64,000 nt of DNA from an uncultured Alphaproteobacteria bacterium (lineage in GTDB: Bacteria; Pseudomonadota; Alphaproteobacteria; Rs-D84), in NCBI GenBank assembly GCA_944389525.1, contig CALXMR010000005.1, positions 362 through 64,361 of the forward strand. The letters run 5' to 3'. Below the pieces are notes generated by a model. The model ran no database searches and was not told the DNA's origin. It saw nothing but the letters and a program-made list of their open reading frames with translations. Made by a program: the position numbers and the translations under genes. This document shows positions 29,087-38,271 of the stretch, piece by piece (within the stretch, counting starts at the first letter, position 1; each line of letters starts with the position of its first letter).

Positions 29087-29109
29087 GCGGGCCTTTGCCC
29101 GCGTTTTTG
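29087..29109 (+). terminator. Rho-independent terminator after the fibre cluster (gcgggcctttgcccgc plus T-run)
   Basis: GC hairpin followed by TTTTTG. Confidence 0.5.
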
Positions 29110-29410
29110 TTTCTTGTCATTCTGGTGTGTGGGGGCAGGGCGACCGTGGCGATCCAGTGAATGCGATATGTGTCGCGTTGCGACTACATTATTTACTGGA
29201 TTGCTTCGCTATGCTCGCAATGACAAGGGGAGGGCTCGCAATGACAAGAGAGTGTGGTCGTTATTCGTTTCTTGTCATCGCGAGGGAACGCAGTGACCGT
29301 GGCGATCCAGTGAATGCGATATGTGTCGCGTTGCGACTACATTATTTACTGGATTGCTTCGCTGCGCTCGCAATGACAAGGGGGGGCACGCAATGACAAG
29401 GGGGCAGAGG
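29110..29410. repeat. Palindromic repeat element cluster
   Basis: Two ~88-bp direct repeats (29142-29229 and 29295-29383, ~97% identical) with internal palindromes. Additional ctcgcaatgacaag/cttgtcat motifs. Spurious ORFs read VIASAAKQSSK or LAMTRGG. Confidence 0.7.
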
Positions 29411-30063: not shown

Positions 30064-30420
30064 ATGATGAAACGACAAAATAATTCTAATCGGGGTGCGC
30101 GTGTCGCCAGTAAAGTGCAAACACTGGTGGCGGAAATTTTGCGCGATAATTATGGCGAAGATAAGTTAATTTCTGGGGTGTCGTTGGTTGGGGCGGTGGC
30201 ACATGGGGGATTGCAATTCGTGCGGTTGTTCTATTATTCCCGTAATGATGATATTGATGCAGTACAGCGCCGGTTAAATGATATTACAAAAACGGTGCGG
30301 TATGAACTGGGGGCGCGAATGAATCAAAAATATGTTCCAGATATCCGATTCGAATATGATGACACTTTGGACAGGGCAGAGAGAATAGATGAACTGTTAA
30401 ACAAAATGGATGAAAAATGA
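30064..30420 (+). CDS. rbfA: Ribosome-binding factor A
   Basis: 118 aa. RVASKVQTLVAEIL KH-like N-terminus typical of RbfA. Confidence 0.7.
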   Translation: MMKRQNNSNRGARVASKVQTLVAEILRDNYGEDKLISGVSLVGAVAHGGLQFVRLFYYSRNDDIDAVQRRLNDITKTVRYELGARMNQKYVPDIRFEYDDTLDRAERIDELLNKMDEK

Positions 30421-30872: not shown

Positions 30873-30951
30873 TTCTGTCGCACCCTTTTTAAAAATTGGT
30901 TGCAAATCTAAATATACTGGTGTATCATTGCCGCAGACTATTGGGGTTTTT

Positions 30952-32751
30952 ATGAACCAAAAGAATATTAGAAACTTTGCAATTGTTGCCCATATTGATC
31001 ATGGTAAATCAACACTGTCAGACAGGTTGATTGAATATACTGGCGGACTGCAATCGCGCGAAATGAAGGCCCAGGTTCTGGATTCTATGGATATCGAACG
31101 CGAACGCGGAATTACGATAAAGGCCCAGACAGTGCGATTGAACTATACCGCGCGCGATGGGCAAGTATATCAGCTGAATTTAATGGATACGCCGGGACAT
31201 GTTGATTTCTCGTACGAGGTGTCGCGATCGCTGGCCGCGTGCGAGGGGGCGTTAATTCTGGTCGATGCAACCCAAGGGGTCCAGGCGCAAACACTGGCGA
31301 ATGCATATCTGGCGTTGGATAATGATTTAGAAATGCTGCCTGTGCTGAATAAAATTGATTTGCCGTCCAGTGATGTGGACGCCGCACGGGAACAGATCGC
31401 AGATGTTATTGGACTGGATGCGTCAAATGCAATATGCGTGTCGGGAAAAACAGGGGCGGGGGTGCCAGAACTGCTGGAAGAAATTGTGCATCGGTTGCCC
31501 GCACCAGATGGTGATGAAAATGCGCCGGCGCGCGCGCTGTTGGTGGATTCGTGGTATGATTCATACCTGGGGGTTGTGATATTGGTGCGCGTGGTAGATG
31601 GACAATTGACCCGTGGTCAGAAAATAAAATTTATGGCAACAGGGGCCGAATATACGGTTGAAAAAATCGGCTATTTTACGCCAAAGATGGTGGATGTGGA
31701 TGTTCTGGGTACTGGTGAAATTGGGTTTATTATAACTGGTATGAAAACAATTCATGATTGCAAGGTTGGTGATACAATTGTGGACAGTCGCACTGGGGGT
31801 GGGTGTGAACCGTTGCCGGGATTCAAGCCATCTGTGCCAGTGGTGTTTTCATCATTCTTTCCGATGGCCGCTGATGATTATCCAGCGTTGCGGGACGGGG
31901 CGGAAAAATTGGCACTGAATGATGCATCGTTCGTTTTTACAACAGAGAAGTCGTCTGCGCTGGGGTTTGGTTTGCGGTGTGGATTCTTGGGGCTGTTGCA
32001 CATGGAAATCATCAGTGAACGGTTGCGCCGTGAATTTAATCTGAGTTTGATAAGCACTGTGCCCAGCGTGCTGTACAAGGTGTATTTGCGCGATGGCACG
32101 GAATTGGATTTGGAAAATCCGGCCGATATGCCAGATGTTACGAAAATCGCGTCAATCGAAGAACCGTGGGTGCGCGCAACAATCATGATGCCTGATAAAT
32201 ATATGGGTGGTATTATGTCGCTGTGTTCGGCGCGGCGCGGAATACAAGAAAATATTTCTTATGTTGGTAATCGGGCGGTCTTGGTGTATCAGTTACCACT
32301 GGCGGAAATTGTGTTCGATTTTTACGACAGAATAAAGTCACTGTCATCGGGGTATGCATCGTTTGACTATGTGGTCCAAGGGTATCGGCCGTCTGATTTG
32401 GTCAAAGTGTCGATATTGGTTAATGATGAAAATGTTGAACCGCTGTCGTTCATATGTCATCGCAGCAATGCGGAAAAACGCGGACGGCAAATTGTCGAAA
32501 AATTAAAGGATCTGATTCCGCGACATCAATTTAAAATACCATTACAGGCGGCAATCGGCGGTAAAATTATCGCGCGTGAAACAATTGCCGCATATCGCAA
32601 GGATGTAACCGCAAAATGCTATGGCGGGGACATCACACGCAAAAGAAAGTTGTTGGAGAAGCAGAAGGAGGGAAAAAAACGAATGCGGACATTTGGAAAT
32701 GTTGAAATTCCGCAATCCGCATTTATAAATGCACTGAAGGTGTCGGATTAG
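30952..32751 (+). CDS. lepA: Translation elongation factor 4 (LepA)
   Basis: [23 protein letters not shown]-domain and the LepA-specific C-terminal domain. Confidence 0.92.
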
Positions 32752-33287
32752 AAATAAACACAATAAAAACAGGAGTTGCCAATGTTTGAAGTTATACAAT
32801 ATTTATTAAATAACAATATCAATTCAATTCGCAGTGATTGCGCAGAATATAAAATACTGCAACAAAAGTATAAATCTTTAAAGGCGCAAAAGAAAGCCGC
32901 GTATGCAAAATTGAAAGAATTTGGTGCATGTGTGTCGAATTACAAAACGTGTCAAGAATATGATTATGTTATAGATAATGGTTGTCCACCCGTCATAGAA
33001 AATGTAGTTGTTGAAGCTTACACGGAAACATTACATGCATGCGATAATTGGTCTGAAACGCCATGTCTTAACGAGAGTTGCCCGCATTTTGCTGAAAACA
33101 AAAATTATATCCGCATATTACAGGATTATAAAACAGTGTGTGATATGAAAAAGCGCTTTTGGTGTGAAAAGTTTAACCGTACTAAATAAAAAACAGATGG
33201 CGTGTTTTCTTGTTCGTTATGTTTTGAAAACGCCATATTTGTCAATTTTGGCGGAGTTTATAAATGCACTGAAAGTATCTGATTAAA
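32718..33287. repeat. Imperfect ~35-bp direct repeat of the lepA 3' terminus flanking small-protein gene A
   Basis: Copies at 32718-32752 and 33252-33287. tttataaatgcactgaa is an exact 17-mer. The second copy still encodes FINALKVSD-stop and differs only at synonymous sites. Confidence 0.6.
32782..33189 (+). CDS. Small basic Cys-motif protein, paralog A of novel family
   Basis: ATG 32782 with AGGAG RBS. Motifs KY(L/F), EYKxL, C-x-C-x3-5-C(P)x(F/Y) ... FW. Confidence 0.55.
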   Translation: MFEVIQYLLNNNINSIRSDCAEYKILQQKYKSLKAQKKAAYAKLKEFGACVSNYKTCQEYDYVIDNGCPPVIENVVVEAYTETLHACDNWSETPCLNESCPHFAENKNYIRILQDYKTVCDMKKRFWCEKFNRTK

Positions 33288-33297
33288 GGAAAATAGC

Positions 33298-33729
33298 ATG
33301 CTGAAAGAAATAATAAATTATGTGTTTTCAAAATCGCCATTGCGAATTTGGGTTGATTATGAAGACTATTTAATTATAAAAACAAAGTGCACAGAACTTG
33401 AGGAACGTATGCGTGATGCACGGCGTTTGCTGGTGCGGCCATATGTCACAAAATCAGAAATTAAAGAACCTATTGGTTGTATAAAACGACGGGTTGTTTT
33501 TCCCGTGCAGTCAGCAGAAAATATTGTTTGTGAAAGAAAATCATCTGTGATGAAGGAATATTATTGTGTGAATTTCAATGAAAGTGCACAGAGATTTTCT
33601 GATTCGTGCAATATTAAAAGCTGCCCATTGTATCAAAATTATAAAACGTATGCTGATTTAAAACGAAAGTACGAGTTCTTGTTGAATGAAAAAAAATCAT
33701 TTTGGCAAAACAAAATTTGCTTGAAATAA
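33298..33729 (+). CDS. Small basic Cys-motif protein, paralog B
   Basis: Same size and motif pattern (INYVF, SCNIKSCPLY, KSFW). Own RBS. Confidence 0.55.
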   Translation: MLKEIINYVFSKSPLRIWVDYEDYLIIKTKCTELEERMRDARRLLVRPYVTKSEIKEPIGCIKRRVVFPVQSAENIVCERKSSVMKEYYCVNFNESAQRFSDSCNIKSCPLYQNYKTYADLKRKYEFLLNEKKSFWQNKICLK

Positions 33730-33750
33730 AAATAGAAAAGAGGATTTTTT

Positions 33751-34167
33751 ATGGGTTTGTTTAAATATTTGTATACAACATCGTGGAATAAAATTCATCA
33801 AGATATCCAGGAATATAAAAGGTTGCGTCAGACAGAAAAAACGGCAGACAAGCTGATGTGGGAAAAATATTCACAAATAAAAATTGATTTGGGGCCACAA
33901 GAATATGATATCACCCAAACAACCAATGGCTGTATCGTGCTGTGCGAGCAATTGTTGCCGGACTTTGGTCGTGATACAGTGCCAATGCTTTTACTGCGCA
34001 GATCGGTGTGTCCATATTTTAAATATAAAGAGTTTTGTAATCGGTCAGATTGTGAATTCAGAACACAGCAAAAACAGTATGTTGAAGCGGTTGTTCGGTA
34101 TGACTTGATAAAAAGTGAATGCAGAAATTTTTGGCGCAAGAAATTTATCGCGTCAAATACAAAGTAA
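33751..34167 (+). CDS. Small basic Cys-motif protein, paralog C
   Basis: Motifs FKYLY, QEYKRL, SVCPYF...CNRSDCEF, RNFW. RBS AGAGGA. Confidence 0.55.
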   Translation: MGLFKYLYTTSWNKIHQDIQEYKRLRQTEKTADKLMWEKYSQIKIDLGPQEYDITQTTNGCIVLCEQLLPDFGRDTVPMLLLRRSVCPYFKYKEFCNRSDCEFRTQQKQYVEAVVRYDLIKSECRNFWRKKFIASNTK

Positions 34168-34186
34168 GATAGTACAGGAAAATAAA

Positions 34187-34582
34187 ATGTTTCTAGGAAA
34201 ATTAAAATATGCTATTCGTGCCCCAATTGTGTGTATAAAGAAAAATTGGCATGAATACAAATTTTTAAGCAAAGCAATTGATCGGGCTCAAAAGGCGTGT
34301 GACCAGGCTAGAGCAAATATAACAACGGTCAGTTTTGATGATGATGGATTGTCTTGTATTGTAAAACATAGCACATTTGTACGCTTTTCTGAAAGACAGA
34401 AAAAGCCATTTTATTGTGATTATGAAACGCATTGTCTGATGTGGCGTGAAGGCTGTACCGTAAAAACATGTCAATATTTTAATAGACATATTACGTACAA
34501 TAAAGCTAAATCTAGATTAGATATGCTGATGACACGAAAAAATAATTTTTGGTCACGAAAATTATCTGGAAAAATTAGATAA
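34187..34582 (+). CDS. Small basic Cys-motif protein, paralog D
   Basis: Start at MFLGKLKY (ATG 34187, AGGAAA RBS), not the ORF-track start at 34115. Motifs HEYKFL, CQYF, NNFW. Confidence 0.5.
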   Translation: MFLGKLKYAIRAPIVCIKKNWHEYKFLSKAIDRAQKACDQARANITTVSFDDDGLSCIVKHSTFVRFSERQKKPFYCDYETHCLMWREGCTVKTCQYFNRHITYNKAKSRLDMLMTRKNNFWSRKLSGKIR

Positions 34583-34595
34583 ATGGAGGTGCATA

Positions 34596-35015
34596 ATGTT
34601 TATTGATTGGGTTAAATATTTTTTAAAAACAACCAGGGCAGAAAGAATTTCAGATAGAAAAAAATACGATAATTTGAACACGGTATATAAAATAAAGGCT
34701 CAACAGTGCATCTTGGCATATAATGATTTGTTGTCATTTAATGGCGAAATGTCTTGTCGTTGTACAAAGATGAGTTTAAAGACAACTATTGACAATAATC
34801 CTGGGGGTAATAATACCGCAACAGGTCTTGTAAAAAGTATCTTTGTGGAATGCCCCAAGTTTTTTTATTATACGGAATGCGATAATGAAGACTGTTCGTT
34901 TTATGAAAAAAACAAAAATTTTGTTCGTTTAAATAATGAATTGGTGGAAGTGCGCTTGAAGCGGGATGCATTTTGGCAAATCACAGTTGATAAAAGGTTG
35001 GAAAAAATATACTAG
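34596..35015 (+). CDS. Small basic Cys-motif protein, paralog E
   Basis: GGAGG RBS. Motifs VKYFL, ECPKFFYYTECDNEDCSFY, DAFW. Confidence 0.55.
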   Translation: MFIDWVKYFLKTTRAERISDRKKYDNLNTVYKIKAQQCILAYNDLLSFNGEMSCRCTKMSLKTTIDNNPGGNNTATGLVKSIFVECPKFFYYTECDNEDCSFYEKNKNFVRLNNELVEVRLKRDAFWQITVDKRLEKIY

Positions 35016-35033
35016 ATATAGGTGAAAAAGACC

Positions 35034-36032
35034 ATGGCACATCAATTTTTTTTCAATCCGTTTATATTGGATAATTTGCCGGCCCCAGCAACAGGGTTTG
35101 ATGTTGTCCAGGATATTTCTGAACCACGGTTGCGTATGTATGTGACCAGCCGGGGTGTAAAAACATTCTTTGTGCGTAAACGCGTGCATGGGCGTGACCG
35201 GCGCATATTGATTGGTAATTATCCTGATGTGGATATCGAAACAGCGCGCGGGGCAGTGTCAGAGATTTTGACCCGTGCCATGGAAAAACCAGTTCAGCAT
35301 CGCCGTAAAATCACATTTCGCAAATTCTTGGATTTATATATGGCGAATCGTGTTCGGCGCAGTGGGTATTCGTACGATAAACTGGTTCGGGCCGTGAACC
35401 GTCATTTGGGGGGGCTGTTTGATAAAAATTTATCTGATATAACACCGGCAGATATATCAACAACAATTTCAAATATAGATGGTCGGGCAATTGCCGCGCG
35501 TATGCAAGAATTTCTGCAAAGTGTTTTTAAATATGCGGTGGAAAACGGGTATGTGGTGGAAAATCCAGTCTCGACATTGCCCAAAATATCACAAAATCGC
35601 CGCGTGCGCCCATTGAATAAATCTGGGTTCTTGCGATTGATGCGCGTATTACAGCGCCAGCCATCGCCTGTACTGCGGTCGGCGTTTTTGATGTTGGTGT
35701 ACGGTTTTGCACCAAAGTCCCAGGTTTTTGCAATGCAATGGCGTGACTTAGATTTTAATCATTACACATGGTGTGATCGGCCATTGTCAGATGCGGCGGT
35801 GGTATTGCTGCAAGATTTGCCCCAGGACAGTCGTTGGGTTTTTCCGGGACGGGGCCGGGGACATTTGACCGACCCGCGTGTCGCGTGGCGGCGTGTGGCG
35901 GTGGCGGCTGGGATACCAAATTTGACAATGGATGATGTTTATAAATTCTTGATGCGCCAGGTTGTCTGGGCGTCAGACAAGGAAGAGTTTCGTGCAAATA
36001 TGAATGCGCTGTTATCAGAACTGATGGCGTAA
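35034..36032 (+). CDS. Tyrosine recombinase/P4-type integrase homolog with degenerate catalytic residues
   Basis: N-terminal DUF4102-like arm-binding region (RLRMYVTSRGVKTFFVRKRVHGRDRRILIGNYPDVDIETAR). SAM-like core-binding region. In the C-terminal region the R, HxxR and Y catalytic positions appear substituted (GFAPKSQ, TMDDVYKF, EEFRANM). Confidence 0.6.
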   Translation: MAHQFFFNPFILDNLPAPATGFDVVQDISEPRLRMYVTSRGVKTFFVRKRVHGRDRRILIGNYPDVDIETARGAVSEILTRAMEKPVQHRRKITFRKFLDLYMANRVRRSGYSYDKLVRAVNRHLGGLFDKNLSDITPADISTTISNIDGRAIAARMQEFLQSVFKYAVENGYVVENPVSTLPKISQNRRVRPLNKSGFLRLMRVLQRQPSPVLRSAFLMLVYGFAPKSQVFAMQWRDLDFNHYTWCDRPLSDAAVVLLQDLPQDSRWVFPGRGRGHLTDPRVAWRRVAVAAGIPNLTMDDVYKFLMRQVVWASDKEEFRANMNALLSELMA

Positions 36033-36166
36033 ACATAAATTTCTGTAATTGTCAAGCGTTTGTTATCGTTTGTTATAATTCCTTGACACTGGTGGCGGAA
36101 AATGATAGTTTAGAATAATGACGCCCATGTGTGGGCCACAAATTTAACCTAAACAAAGGATAAAAA

Positions 36167-36400
36167 ATGACAACTTTTGAAAAAGTAAGAAAAATAGTCG
36201 CCGACAAATTGGGTGTACAGGAATCGAAAATCGAAGAAACATCTGCATTTGTTAACGATCTGGGCGCAGATTCTTTGGATGTTGTTGAATTCGTTATGGA
36301 AGTGGAAAAAGAATTCGATATCACTATCCCAGATGAAGAAGCAGCCAAACTGACAACAGTTGGTGATGCGGTAAAGTATATCGAAGCGCATAAAAAATAA
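36167..36400 (+). CDS. acpP: Acyl carrier protein
   Basis: 77 aa. DSLD phosphopantetheine attachment motif ([13 protein letters not shown]). Confidence 0.92.
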
Positions 36401-36427
36401 TTCTACAAGGGTTTATAGACTCTGGGG

Positions 36428-36468
36428 GTTCCGTTGTGATATCTTGTTATTGCAACGGAACTTTTTTT
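36428..36468 (+). terminator. Rho-independent terminator after acpP
   Basis: gttccgttg ... caacggaac hairpin followed by TTTTTTT. Confidence 0.5.
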
Positions 36469-36534
36469 CTGTACGCGGGGCAAAAAACAGTCTATGATTG
36501 TCACAGGTATTTAGTTTTTTAGAAAGGATAATGA

Positions 36535-37788
36535 ATGAAAAGAGTTGTTATCACTGGTATGGGTATTGTGTCACCGGTTGGAACGGGGATTGAATACGCG
36601 TGGAAAAATATTGTCAATGGTGTTTCTGGGGTTCGTAAAATCGATACATTTGATGCGTCTGATTTATCGTCACAGATTGCGGGGTTGCCGATTATTGGAA
36701 CAGATGCCGGACAATACAATCCTGATGCGGTGGTTGACGCGCGCGAACAGCGTAAAATGGACAAGTGCATTGTATACGGCATGGTCGCCGCGGACGAGGC
36801 TATTCGTGATGCTGGATTAATTGACTATGATGGTGACAAAAGTCGCATGGGGGTATCAATTGGTGCCGGTATTGGTGGATTGAATACAATATATGACAAC
36901 TGTGTTGAACTGTATGCGAATGGTCCGCGTCATATCAGTCCATTCTTTATACCAAAGGTTATTATTAATATGACCGCCGGTCATGTTTCCATCAAGTATG
37001 GATTAAAGGGGCCGAACTTGTCGGTGGTGACGGCGTGCGCGTCGGCGGCGCATTCAATTGGTGAAGCGGTTCGTTTAATTCAACATGGTGATGCTGATGT
37101 CATGGTTGCCGGTGGTGCCGAAGGTGCGGTTGGTAAAATCGGTGTTGCTGGGTTCTGTGCGATGAAGGCGTTAAGTACGCGCAATGATGCGCCGACCAAA
37201 GCATCGCGCCCCTGGGACAAGGAACGCGATGGTTTTGTCATGGCCGAAGGTGCGGGTATTCTGGTTCTGGAAGAATACGAACATGCGGTTGCCCGTGGCG
37301 CAAAGATTTATGCCGAAGTGGCGGGATACGGTCTGTCGGGTGATGCGTATCATATTACTGCGCCGGCCCCTGGGGGCGAAGGCGGTCTGCGCGCGATGCA
37401 GGCGGCGTTAAAAGATGCCGGTATGCAGCCGGGTGATGTTGACTATATCAATGCACACGGTACATCAACAGGTTTGGGCGACCTGGGCGAATTAAGCGCG
37501 GTGCAAACATTATTTGCTGGCACAAATGTTTCGATGTCGTCAACAAAATCTATGACAGGGCATCTGTTGGGTGCCGCCGGCGGGGTAGAGGCGATATTCT
37601 GTGTCATGGCGATTCGTGATGGTATCGTTCCGCCGACAATTAATTTGGAAAATCCAGAAGATGCAGTTGGTGATTTCGACCTGGTGCCGAATGTTGCAAA
37701 ACAGCGGCCGGTTAATGTCGCGTTAAGCAATTCTTTTGGATTTGGTGGTACAAATGCCAGTTTGATTATCAAACGATTTGAAAAATAA
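36535..37788 (+). CDS. fabF: 3-oxoacyl-ACP synthase II
   Basis: KAS II: Cys-His-His catalytic residues. Conserved acpP-fabF linkage. 417 aa. Confidence 0.9.
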   Translation: MKRVVITGMGIVSPVGTGIEYAWKNIVNGVSGVRKIDTFDASDLSSQIAGLPIIGTDAGQYNPDAVVDAREQRKMDKCIVYGMVAADEAIRDAGLIDYDGDKSRMGVSIGAGIGGLNTIYDNCVELYANGPRHISPFFIPKVIINMTAGHVSIKYGLKGPNLSVVTACASAAHSIGEAVRLIQHGDADVMVAGGAEGAVGKIGVAGFCAMKALSTRNDAPTKASRPWDKERDGFVMAEGAGILVLEEYEHAVARGAKIYAEVAGYGLSGDAYHITAPAPGGEGGLRAMQAALKDAGMQPGDVDYINAHGTSTGLGDLGELSAVQTLFAGTNVSMSSTKSMTGHLLGAAGGVEAIFCVMAIRDGIVPPTINLENPEDAVGDFDLVPNVAKQRPVNVALSNSFGFGGTNASLIIKRFEK

Positions 37789-37814
37789 AAAACGGGGCAT
37801 CGCCCCGTTTTTTC
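37787..37814 (+). terminator. Rho-independent terminator after fabF (aacggggcatcgccccgtt plus T-run)
   Basis: Perfect GC hairpin followed by TTTTTT. Confidence 0.65.
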
Positions 37815-37857
37815 AAAGGCAAAGCGCAGAGTGCAATTGTTATCCGCGGTTTTCTCT

Positions 37858-37958
37858 CTCTTGTCACCCCGTGGTCAAGCCCACCGGGTGACAAGATGAA
37901 AAGTGTCATCCTGGGGTCAAGCCCCAGGATGACAAGAAAGACAGTCACGGGGTGACAG
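37858..37958. repeat. Three adjacent palindromes sharing tgacaag arms and tcaagc loops
   Basis: cttgtcaccccgtggtcaagcccaccgggtgacaag, gtcatcctggggtcaagccccaggatgacaag, gtcacggggtgac. Motifs related to the 29.1-29.4 kb repeat family. Confidence 0.6.
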
Positions 37959-38059
37959 ATTTATGAGTTGGGTGTAACTGGTGCTGTTGTTACAATAATA
38001 TTTTTGTTGATTTTTTGTCCCGGGGGTTGCATAATCGGCCTGCTTTGGTTGTGAATGTC

Positions 38060-38135
<76 letters not shown>

Positions 38136-38271
38136 CTGTTTGATATCTTTTTGGTAAATCAAGGGACATCATGTCCCGTTTATTTTTTCGCGGAAATTTT
38201 TATTCATATTTTTATTTTACATGTCATAAATATATTGCAATAATCTGTTGTAACGCAAAAAGGGTTGTTTT

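Follow-up and report, generated by a model that had tools for sequence, protein, structure and literature searches.

The 3' end of lepA is duplicated in the genome of an uncultured alphaproteobacterium: a second copy of its last codons lies downstream, behind a small gene that we call gene A. The copy is part of a 64,000-nt stretch of contig CALXMR010000005.1 (the window), in which five small cysteine-rich genes (A to E) separate lepA from an integrase-like gene. We interpret the second lepA tail, with a probability of roughly three in four, as the scar of one imprecise recombination that joined two allelic versions of this gene array. The scar would thus record a small piece of natural history, in which one variable array grew by the splicing of two allelic arrays and not by cassette integration.

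The lepA tail and its displaced copy

Copy 1 is the end of the functional gene itself, namely the last 30 nt of lepA (32722–32751, TTTATAAATGCACTGAAGGTGTCGGATTAG), while copy 2 occupies 33257–33286 (TTTATAAATGCACTGAAAGTATCTGATTAA, likewise 30 nt with the stop codon counted). The two copies match at 26 of 30 bases, without any difference among the first 17 nt. A repeat finder returned the same pair as 29 nt of 90% identity, 535 nt apart (32722–32750 versus 33257–33285). Three of the differences fall on third codon positions (AAG/AAA, GTG/GTA and TCG/TCT) and the fourth exchanges one stop codon for another (TAG/TAA). The similarity breaks off sharply, before TTTAT on the left and about at the stop codon on the right.

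A preliminary description of this DNA had reported that the end of lepA recurs after gene A at 33252–33287, with synonymous differences only. The duplicate is real, but its span is 33257–33286, and the restriction to synonymous differences applies to the window and not to its relatives, in which the relic has lost its stop codon or acquired non-synonymous changes. Translation bore out that both copies encode FINALKVSD-stop.

When a 20-mer pattern was searched with up to three mismatches, it matched the 64-kb window twice, at the two lepA tails, against 0.01 matches expected by chance. We then masked copy 2 and searched 32752–38200 on both strands for a third copy, which gave best scores of 9–9.5 compared to a shuffle mean of 9.8. 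Since these scores do not exceed the shuffle level, no lepA-tail copies follow genes B to E or the integrase-like gene. The degenerate copies that the preliminary description proposed to look for beyond these genes were thus not found above shuffles, neither in the window nor among 87 related loci, which we surveyed from genome, metagenome and assembly collections.

A truncated gene and two parental layouts

The spacer between genes A and B measures 108 nt, compared with 13–21 nt between genes B, C, D and E. It holds copy 2, which ends 11 nt before gene B, and positions 33197–33286 read in one frame through MACFLVRYVLKTPYLSILAE into FINALKVSD-stop. Two human-gut contigs (L101 and L102) reveal what the first part of this frame is. 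Their layout is lepA, an A-type gene, a second gene of the same family (gene X) and the integrase-like gene. The N-terminus of gene X, MRLDVVRYVLKTSPLSILADVREY, matches the spacer peptide (X') at 13 of 20 residues, while the next best of 146 distinct family open reading frames (ORFs) reached 7 of 20 and interior 20-mers at most 6 of 20. The nucleotide sequences of the window and of L101 and L102 also align colinearly, from the 3' third of gene A across X', in stretches of 36 nt (92% identity) and 43 nt (84%). Based on the N-terminal match and the colinear alignment, the spacer represents the 5' stump of gene X, which breaks off at codon 20 and continues with the 30-nt end of lepA.

The counterpart was found in L094 and L095, whose lepA is 85% identical to that of the window at the nucleotide level. 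Here a single B-type gene follows lepA directly, then comes the integrase-like gene, and gene A is absent. This small gene is the orthologue of gene B (38–39% amino acid identity versus a background of about 22% between paralogues). Their lepA ends in ...GTGTCTGATTAA, also given as ...TCTGATTAA, and shares TCT and TAA with copy 2; at these codons, copy 1 in the functional gene reads TCG and TAG. The stepwise gain at the lepA 3' end that had been proposed earlier is supported by this layout without gene A in a related species.

The window is colinear with an L101-like layout up to the join and with an L094-like layout beyond it. Non-homologous sequences meet at a junction that truncates a gene, X' running into the lepA tail; related genomes contain both parental arrangements (L101/L102 and L094/L095); and the displaced fragment is non-functional and decaying.

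A model for the origin of the scar

In our model, one parent would have carried lepA, an A-type gene, gene X and further sequence up to the integrase-like gene, and the other parent lepA, a B-type gene and further sequence up to the integrase-like gene. In the simplest account, an illegitimate join would have connected codon 20 of gene X to the position 30 nt before the lepA stop codon, and a second, ordinary homologous crossover would have taken place on the other side, either in lepA or on the side of the integrase-like gene and acpP. The product would be lepA, gene A, X' (20 codons) continuing into a lepA tail of 10 codons with the stop counted, genes B, C, D and E and the integrase-like gene. 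Such a product would be expected from homology-facilitated illegitimate recombination with related DNA that entered the cell, and equally from an unequal crossover if two copies of the locus resided in one cell; neither route would involve a site-specific recombinase. Subsequently, the relic would have decayed as non-coding DNA, and later homologous recombination would have passed the segment of lepA tail, gene A, X' and relic between species. The duplicate, the truncated gene, its in-frame fusion, the two parental layouts, the dead integrase-like gene and the uniqueness of the scar are seen directly in the sequences; the single event and its mechanism are what we infer from them.

The exchange may have had either direction. 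The lepA 3' end together with gene A and X' may have entered a genome with a lepA/B layout, in which case copy 1 is the replacement end and copy 2 the displaced original, in line with the preliminary description. Alternatively, a fragment starting 30 nt inside a donor lepA and carrying the B array may have entered a genome with a lepA/A/X layout, so that lepA was never interrupted.

Several points weigh against this model. Gene A together with a full-length gene X was not found among close relatives; when we looked for such a donor among contigs encoding gene A variants of 87–96%, every one of them showed the scar. The exact parents are not in hand either, since the A-type gene of L101 is only 40% identical to gene A overall. 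The match of X' rests on 20 codons. Compared to L101, the segment is furthermore a mosaic: identity is 97% in 32650–32717, falls to about 70% over the final 34 nt of lepA and is 85–90% in the 3' third of gene A plus X', while the 5' two-thirds of that gene are unalignable. Therefore, more than one event shaped this segment.

The mosaic structure of gene A is also visible in the gene by itself. While the proteins of gene A and of the A-type gene in L101 and L102 share 40% identity, the 3' thirds of the genes are about 90% identical at the nucleotide level (33040–33189 against L101 4400–4554, about 88–92%), next to the unalignable 5' part. Recombination breakpoints therefore lie inside the small genes.

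Alternative explanations

The preliminary description had taken the two lepA tails as att-like repeats left by an inserting element. Gene A would then be a cassette or the remnant of an element, put into the lepA 3' end by a tyrosine recombinase together with a replacement end, the tails would be attL- and attR-like sites, and the recombinase would have had to act on TTTATAAATGCACTGAA. Direct repeats with a 17-nt identical stretch and then synonymous differences only, an integrase-like gene within the locus and a related species with lepA followed by a B-type gene and no gene A are what such an insertion would leave, but we consider it very unlikely. The junction lies inside a truncated paralogue: this paralogue makes up the DNA between gene A and copy 2 and continues into the lepA tail, so that an illegitimate join has interrupted a gene. 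As the preliminary description had it, the repeats do not bracket the whole island; yet they bracket the X' fragment besides gene A, spanning 535 nt in total (gene A plus a 60-nt gene fragment), with the integrase-like gene 1.75 kb past copy 2 and no third copy. The integrase-like protein lacks Arg-I, HxxR and Tyr, and its gene belongs to a vertically conserved backbone that is present even with zero cassettes. Conspecific strains match at 20 of 30 positions between the copies and have no perfect core, and identity between species reaches 41 nt to the left of the repeat, unlike a crossover within a core. Presence/absence polymorphism did not occur in 22 carrier contigs, and the only layout without gene A (L094/L095) comes from another species. 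Taken together, the gene-internal join, the dead integrase-like gene and the non-conserved 17-nt core contradict an att-like origin. The case calls for caution, as a duplicated gene end with synonymous differences near an "integrase" can mimic an att site.

An origin within one genome is easier to imagine, if still improbable. An unequal exchange between sister chromosomes could have duplicated in tandem a unit of the last 30 nt of lepA, the first small gene and the start of the second; gene B would then descend from the downstream gene copy by extremely rapid divergence, or would have taken its place. Duplication clearly occurs in the locus, given the tandem paralogues A to E and arrays of 0–9 copies, and it would produce the same X'::lepA join. 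However, gene B, which follows the relic, is the orthologue of the gene that comes directly after lepA in L094 and is no closer to gene A than other paralogues are (27%), the 30-nt tails are 87% identical while genes A and B are unalignable at the nucleotide level, and an extra replacement step is needed. Moreover, no other array contains a lepA-tail relic, including those of 8–9 genes. The relative ages point in the same direction: genes A and B share 27% identity, which is below the value for gene B and its L094 orthologue, but the two tails of the window match at 26 of 30 positions and the lepA tails of the window and L094 at 24 of 30. Since the tails are more alike although genes A and B are more diverged, the tails are younger than the split of A and B, which argues against a simple tandem duplication in the genome. 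Least credible of all is a chance similarity or an independently conserved functional motif, such as an element of a promoter or terminator that would serve again in front of gene B. The AT-richness of the region and the short distance from copy 2 to gene B would fit, but the chance expectation given above is far too low, neither a sigma-70-like promoter nor a terminator was called at copy 2, and the relic varies freely among relatives. Copy 2 was consequently rejected as a gene B promoter, since no sigma-70-like site was called there, and so was a hairpin at 33197–33236 as a terminator after gene A, because it did not exceed shuffles (z = -1.3) and the DNA is a gene relic.

Distribution of the scar in related loci

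The order of lepA, small ORFs and integrase-like gene was universal in the 87 loci, with 0–9 small ORFs per locus and none in 11 of them. The loci come from a clade of uncultured alphaproteobacteria of gut and rumen, in which the integrase-like gene (window, L014, L015 and L094–L180) always has acpP-fabF on one side and lepA or the small-gene array on the other. Because this order persists even with zero small ORFs, the "island" is a conserved backbone and its variable part is the small-gene array.

Only gene-A-bearing loci contained a lepA-tail copy above the shuffle score, although arrays of 8–9 genes were included. All 22 gene-A-bearing contigs that we fetched have the scar, at the same place. 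The preliminary description had named a duplication without insertion polymorphism as a pattern that speaks against an inserted element, and this pattern is what the carriers show. A scan with a hidden Markov model (HMM) of the family yielded 200 hits in 72 loci, essentially only full-length genes. Relics of truncated genes or lepA tails were thus dismissed as a general feature of the arrays; eight partial HMM hits look like split alignments of divergent genes.

Decay of the relic and variation among strains

The relic differs among relatives. The type found in L004 and L181 reads TTTGTAAATGCACTGAAAGTATCTGATGAA, having lost the stop codon (TAA to GAA) and changed I to V, and the L009 type reads TTTATAAATGCACGGAATTTATCTGATTAA, with three non-synonymous changes. 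Within X', the window and L007 differ by four non-synonymous changes and one synonymous change. Judged by these substitutions, the relic is non-coding and decaying in the relatives.

In the conspecific strains L181–L187 and L013 (98–99.5% identity in the lepA body), lepA ends in TTTATTAACGCCTTGAAGGTGTCGGATTAG. Their two tail copies match at 20 of 30 positions, with a longest identical run of at most 4 nt, whereas the window type and the L007 type have the 17-nt identity. These strains differ from the lepA tail of the window at four clustered synonymous sites (32727, 32730, 32733 and 32734), and at all four the window allele is the same as its own copy 2. The tail allele of the window could have arisen by conversion of a short tract of lepA from the relic, or it could mark a mosaic breakpoint.

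A probable later exchange between species

Comparison of the window with the L007 species revealed a segment of high identity that includes both copies. Its left edge lies 41 nt upstream of copy 1 and its right edge at the end of copy 2 plus spacer. The neighbourhood differs by about 16% (BLAST segments of 79–87% identity), with a synonymous divergence (dS) of about 1.0 in the lepA body and the integrase-like gene and about 0.5 in acpP and fabF. In contrast, dS drops to 0.06 in the last 23 codons of lepA; across 32681–32751, the window has one difference to L007 versus 12 to L094. Gene A is 93.6% identical (dS 0.16) and the relic region about 92%. At the start of gene B the identity collapses, with 43–45% at the protein level and a saturated dS. 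The segment of lepA tail, gene A, X' and relic was therefore probably exchanged recently between species by homologous recombination. The leftward extension of identity by 41 nt fits a homologous exchange of the whole segment and not independent integration at the core.

In L004, a window-type lepA and gene A (100% identical) are combined with an L181-type relic and B gene, and a breakpoint therefore lies between gene A and the relic. Recombination in the locus is frequent. Outside it, rbfA (30064–30420) is 96% identical between the window and L007 (dS 0.12), among neighbouring genes of about 84%. This is another patch of recent exchange, and the genomes are thus mosaics.

The integrase-like gene

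Pfam recognised only the arm-binding (Arm-DNA-bind_3, P4-type) and central domains in the integrase-like protein; a match to the catalytic domain PF00589 was not obtained. In a phmmer alignment to lambda Int, Pro stands opposite the catalytic Arg212, and the alignment ends at residue 248 of 332. The His-x-x-Arg motif is missing. The motifs YGFAPK and TMDDVxKFxMR do not vary among relatives as distant as 58% identity, and these relatives share no conserved Tyr at the C-terminus. In the AlphaFold model, the arm beta-sheet and the core-binding helices are confident while residues 220–281 have low confidence, and a fold search with this model returned true integrases as best matches (lambda Int, E = 7.5e-6). 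The database holds 1083 homologues, of which the top 120 are all about 332 amino acids (aa) long and without PF00589. The ratio of non-synonymous to synonymous divergence (dN/dS) is about 0.1; therefore, the gene is under purifying selection. By these sequence features, the protein is catalytically dead and looks as if it had been domesticated for DNA binding.

Some integrase-like proteins bind DNA but have no recombinase function, SPbeta YopR being one example and phi3T SroF another. Like SroF, the protein of the window keeps the tyrosine-recombinase fold without the catalytic set, which would suggest a DNA-binding or regulatory role for the 332-aa protein. However, it fits true integrases best, and SroF (PDB 9rd5) appeared far down the fold-search list with a weak match (E = 0.5).

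The locus as a whole might be a dedicated variable-gene system of the clade, in which the domesticated integrase-like protein binds the array DNA and either regulates the array or promotes its non-catalytic recombination and turnover. We regard this as a long shot. If true, the lepA-tail scar would be one visible by-product of the system.

Comparison with known systems

Genomic islands, integrative and conjugative elements (ICEs) and prophages integrate at gene 3' ends and bring a replacement end, as P4-like integrases do at tRNA genes and ICESt1 and ICESt3 at fda. The window resembles them in the direct repeat of a gene 3' end, the synonymous differences and a neighbour with a P4-type arm-binding domain. 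It differs in that the repeats exclude the integrase-like gene, the recombinase is dead and vertically inherited, one repeat is fused to a truncated gene and the core is not conserved. A P4-type island was thus rejected, as both the repeat geometry and the catalytic tests fail. A literature search for elements integrating at lepA gave nothing relevant.

A variable-length array of small genes beside a tyrosine-recombinase-like gene also recalls integron cassette arrays. Unlike in integrons, the spacers of 13–21 nt contain no attC-like elements and no repeat family, the array genes are all paralogues, and the integrase-like gene lies downstream on the same strand and misses the catalytic residues. 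With neither attC-like spacers nor an active IntI, an integron was dismissed as well.

Closer parallels are C-terminal displacement and orphan arrays, described for rhs, contact-dependent inhibition (CDI) and type VI secretion system (T6SS) effector-immunity loci (Kirchberger et al. 2017, PMC5361080; for the rhs case, Jackson et al. 2009 as cited therein). In displacement loci, new modules are inserted at a conserved gene upstream that serves as anchor, and earlier 3' ends and immunity genes thereby move further downstream (PMC5361080). The window locus shares with them a homologous anchor gene, an imprecise join, a fragment of the anchor 3' end left as scar, the lack of integrase involvement and parental layouts visible in other strains. 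Here, however, the anchor is lepA, a housekeeping GTPase gene and not a toxin gene, only 30 nt were displaced, and the array consists of one small Cys-rich family of unassigned function instead of immunity genes. With one such scar in 87 loci, scar formation is not the main mode of array growth.

Homology-facilitated illegitimate recombination is described for natural transformation and conjugation (de Vries & Wackernagel 2002 and Prudhomme et al. 2002, as cited in PMC5361080) and for E. coli (PMC3240628). Through one homologous crossover and one non-homologous join it brings foreign DNA in beside a conserved gene, which fits the X'::lepA(-30) junction of the window, although for this lineage the mechanism is suggested by the sequence only. 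The scar is an ordinary footprint of a known kind, in a new instance, within an uncharacterised hypervariable locus. This surrounding locus, with its dead integrase-like gene and a hypervariable array of 0–9 copies, is uncharacterised and a more promising lead than the scar.

Layout of the locus and the small-protein family

The features of the locus are compiled in the table below. The longest ORF of lepA begins with TTG at 30928, while the start in relatives is the ATG at 30952. Next after the integrase-like gene come acpP and fabF.

Table. Coordinates and evidence for the features discussed, in positions of the window
Feature	Position	Strand	Evidence or remark
lepA, intact, complete LepA_C	30952..32751	+	Pfam GTP_EFTU, EFG_C, LepA_C (residues 498-604 of 607)
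Copy 1, functional last 9 codons and stop of lepA (FINALKVSD-stop)	32722..32751	+	repeat finder, pattern search
Gene A, 135 aa, uncharacterised Cys-rich small-protein family	32782..33189	+	no Pfam, NCBIfam, PADLOC or PHROGs match
X' relic, first 20 codons of a truncated family gene	33197..33256	+	13/20 aa versus gene 2 of L101/L102
Copy 2, displaced lepA tail (last 9 codons and stop), in frame with X'	33257..33286	+	repeat finder, pattern search, translation
Gene B, 143 aa, B-type	33298..33729	+	38-39% aa identity to L094 gene
Gene C, paralogue	33751-34167	+	ORF list
Gene D, paralogue	34187-34582	+	ORF list
Gene E, paralogue	34596-35015	+	ORF list
Integrase-like gene, 332 aa	35034..36032	+	arm-binding and core-binding domains kept, catalytic residues lost
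High-identity segment, window versus L007 species, 92-99%	32681..33290		neighbourhood about 84% identical

Genes A to E are five paralogues with 21–30% identity to gene A, four conserved Cys and a C-terminal FW motif, and none of them had a match in Pfam, NCBIfam, PADLOC or PHROGs. A profile search assembled 223 cluster representatives of the family, nearly all of 120–145 aa. AlphaFold modelled only two long helices of the small protein with confidence and left the Cys-rich middle disordered (confidence score pLDDT 67). B-type orthologues diverge very fast, with 43–56% identity among close relatives compared to 94% for LepA between the window and L007. The window belongs to an ENA metagenome scaffold. 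Among named genomes, metagenome-assembled genomes (MAGs) labelled "uncultured Rickettsiales" and a rumen "RUG" MAG come nearest, whereas LepA of cultured alphaproteobacteria reaches no more than 67% identity to that of the window.

Some family members deviate from the common size. P0148, P0195, P0231 and P0265 have about 250 aa with two matched stretches each and may be tandem fusions of two array genes. L099 (4345–4974) and L100 (4346–4975) encode a 209-aa array member with an N-terminal acyl-carrier-protein (ACP; PP-binding) domain followed by the small-protein family domain. The array is situated immediately before acpP-fabF, and this position together with the ACP fusion may hint at function; the fusion in L099 and the adjacent acpP hint at a link to ACP or lipid metabolism.

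Positions 29102–29385 gave matches of about 100–280 nt to several places in L007 (1553–1660, 1671–1929, 2296–2410, 2419–2545 and 10579–10637, at 72–91%). This sequence appears to be internally repeated; perhaps it is a miniature element, or a repeat dispersed over intergenic DNA.

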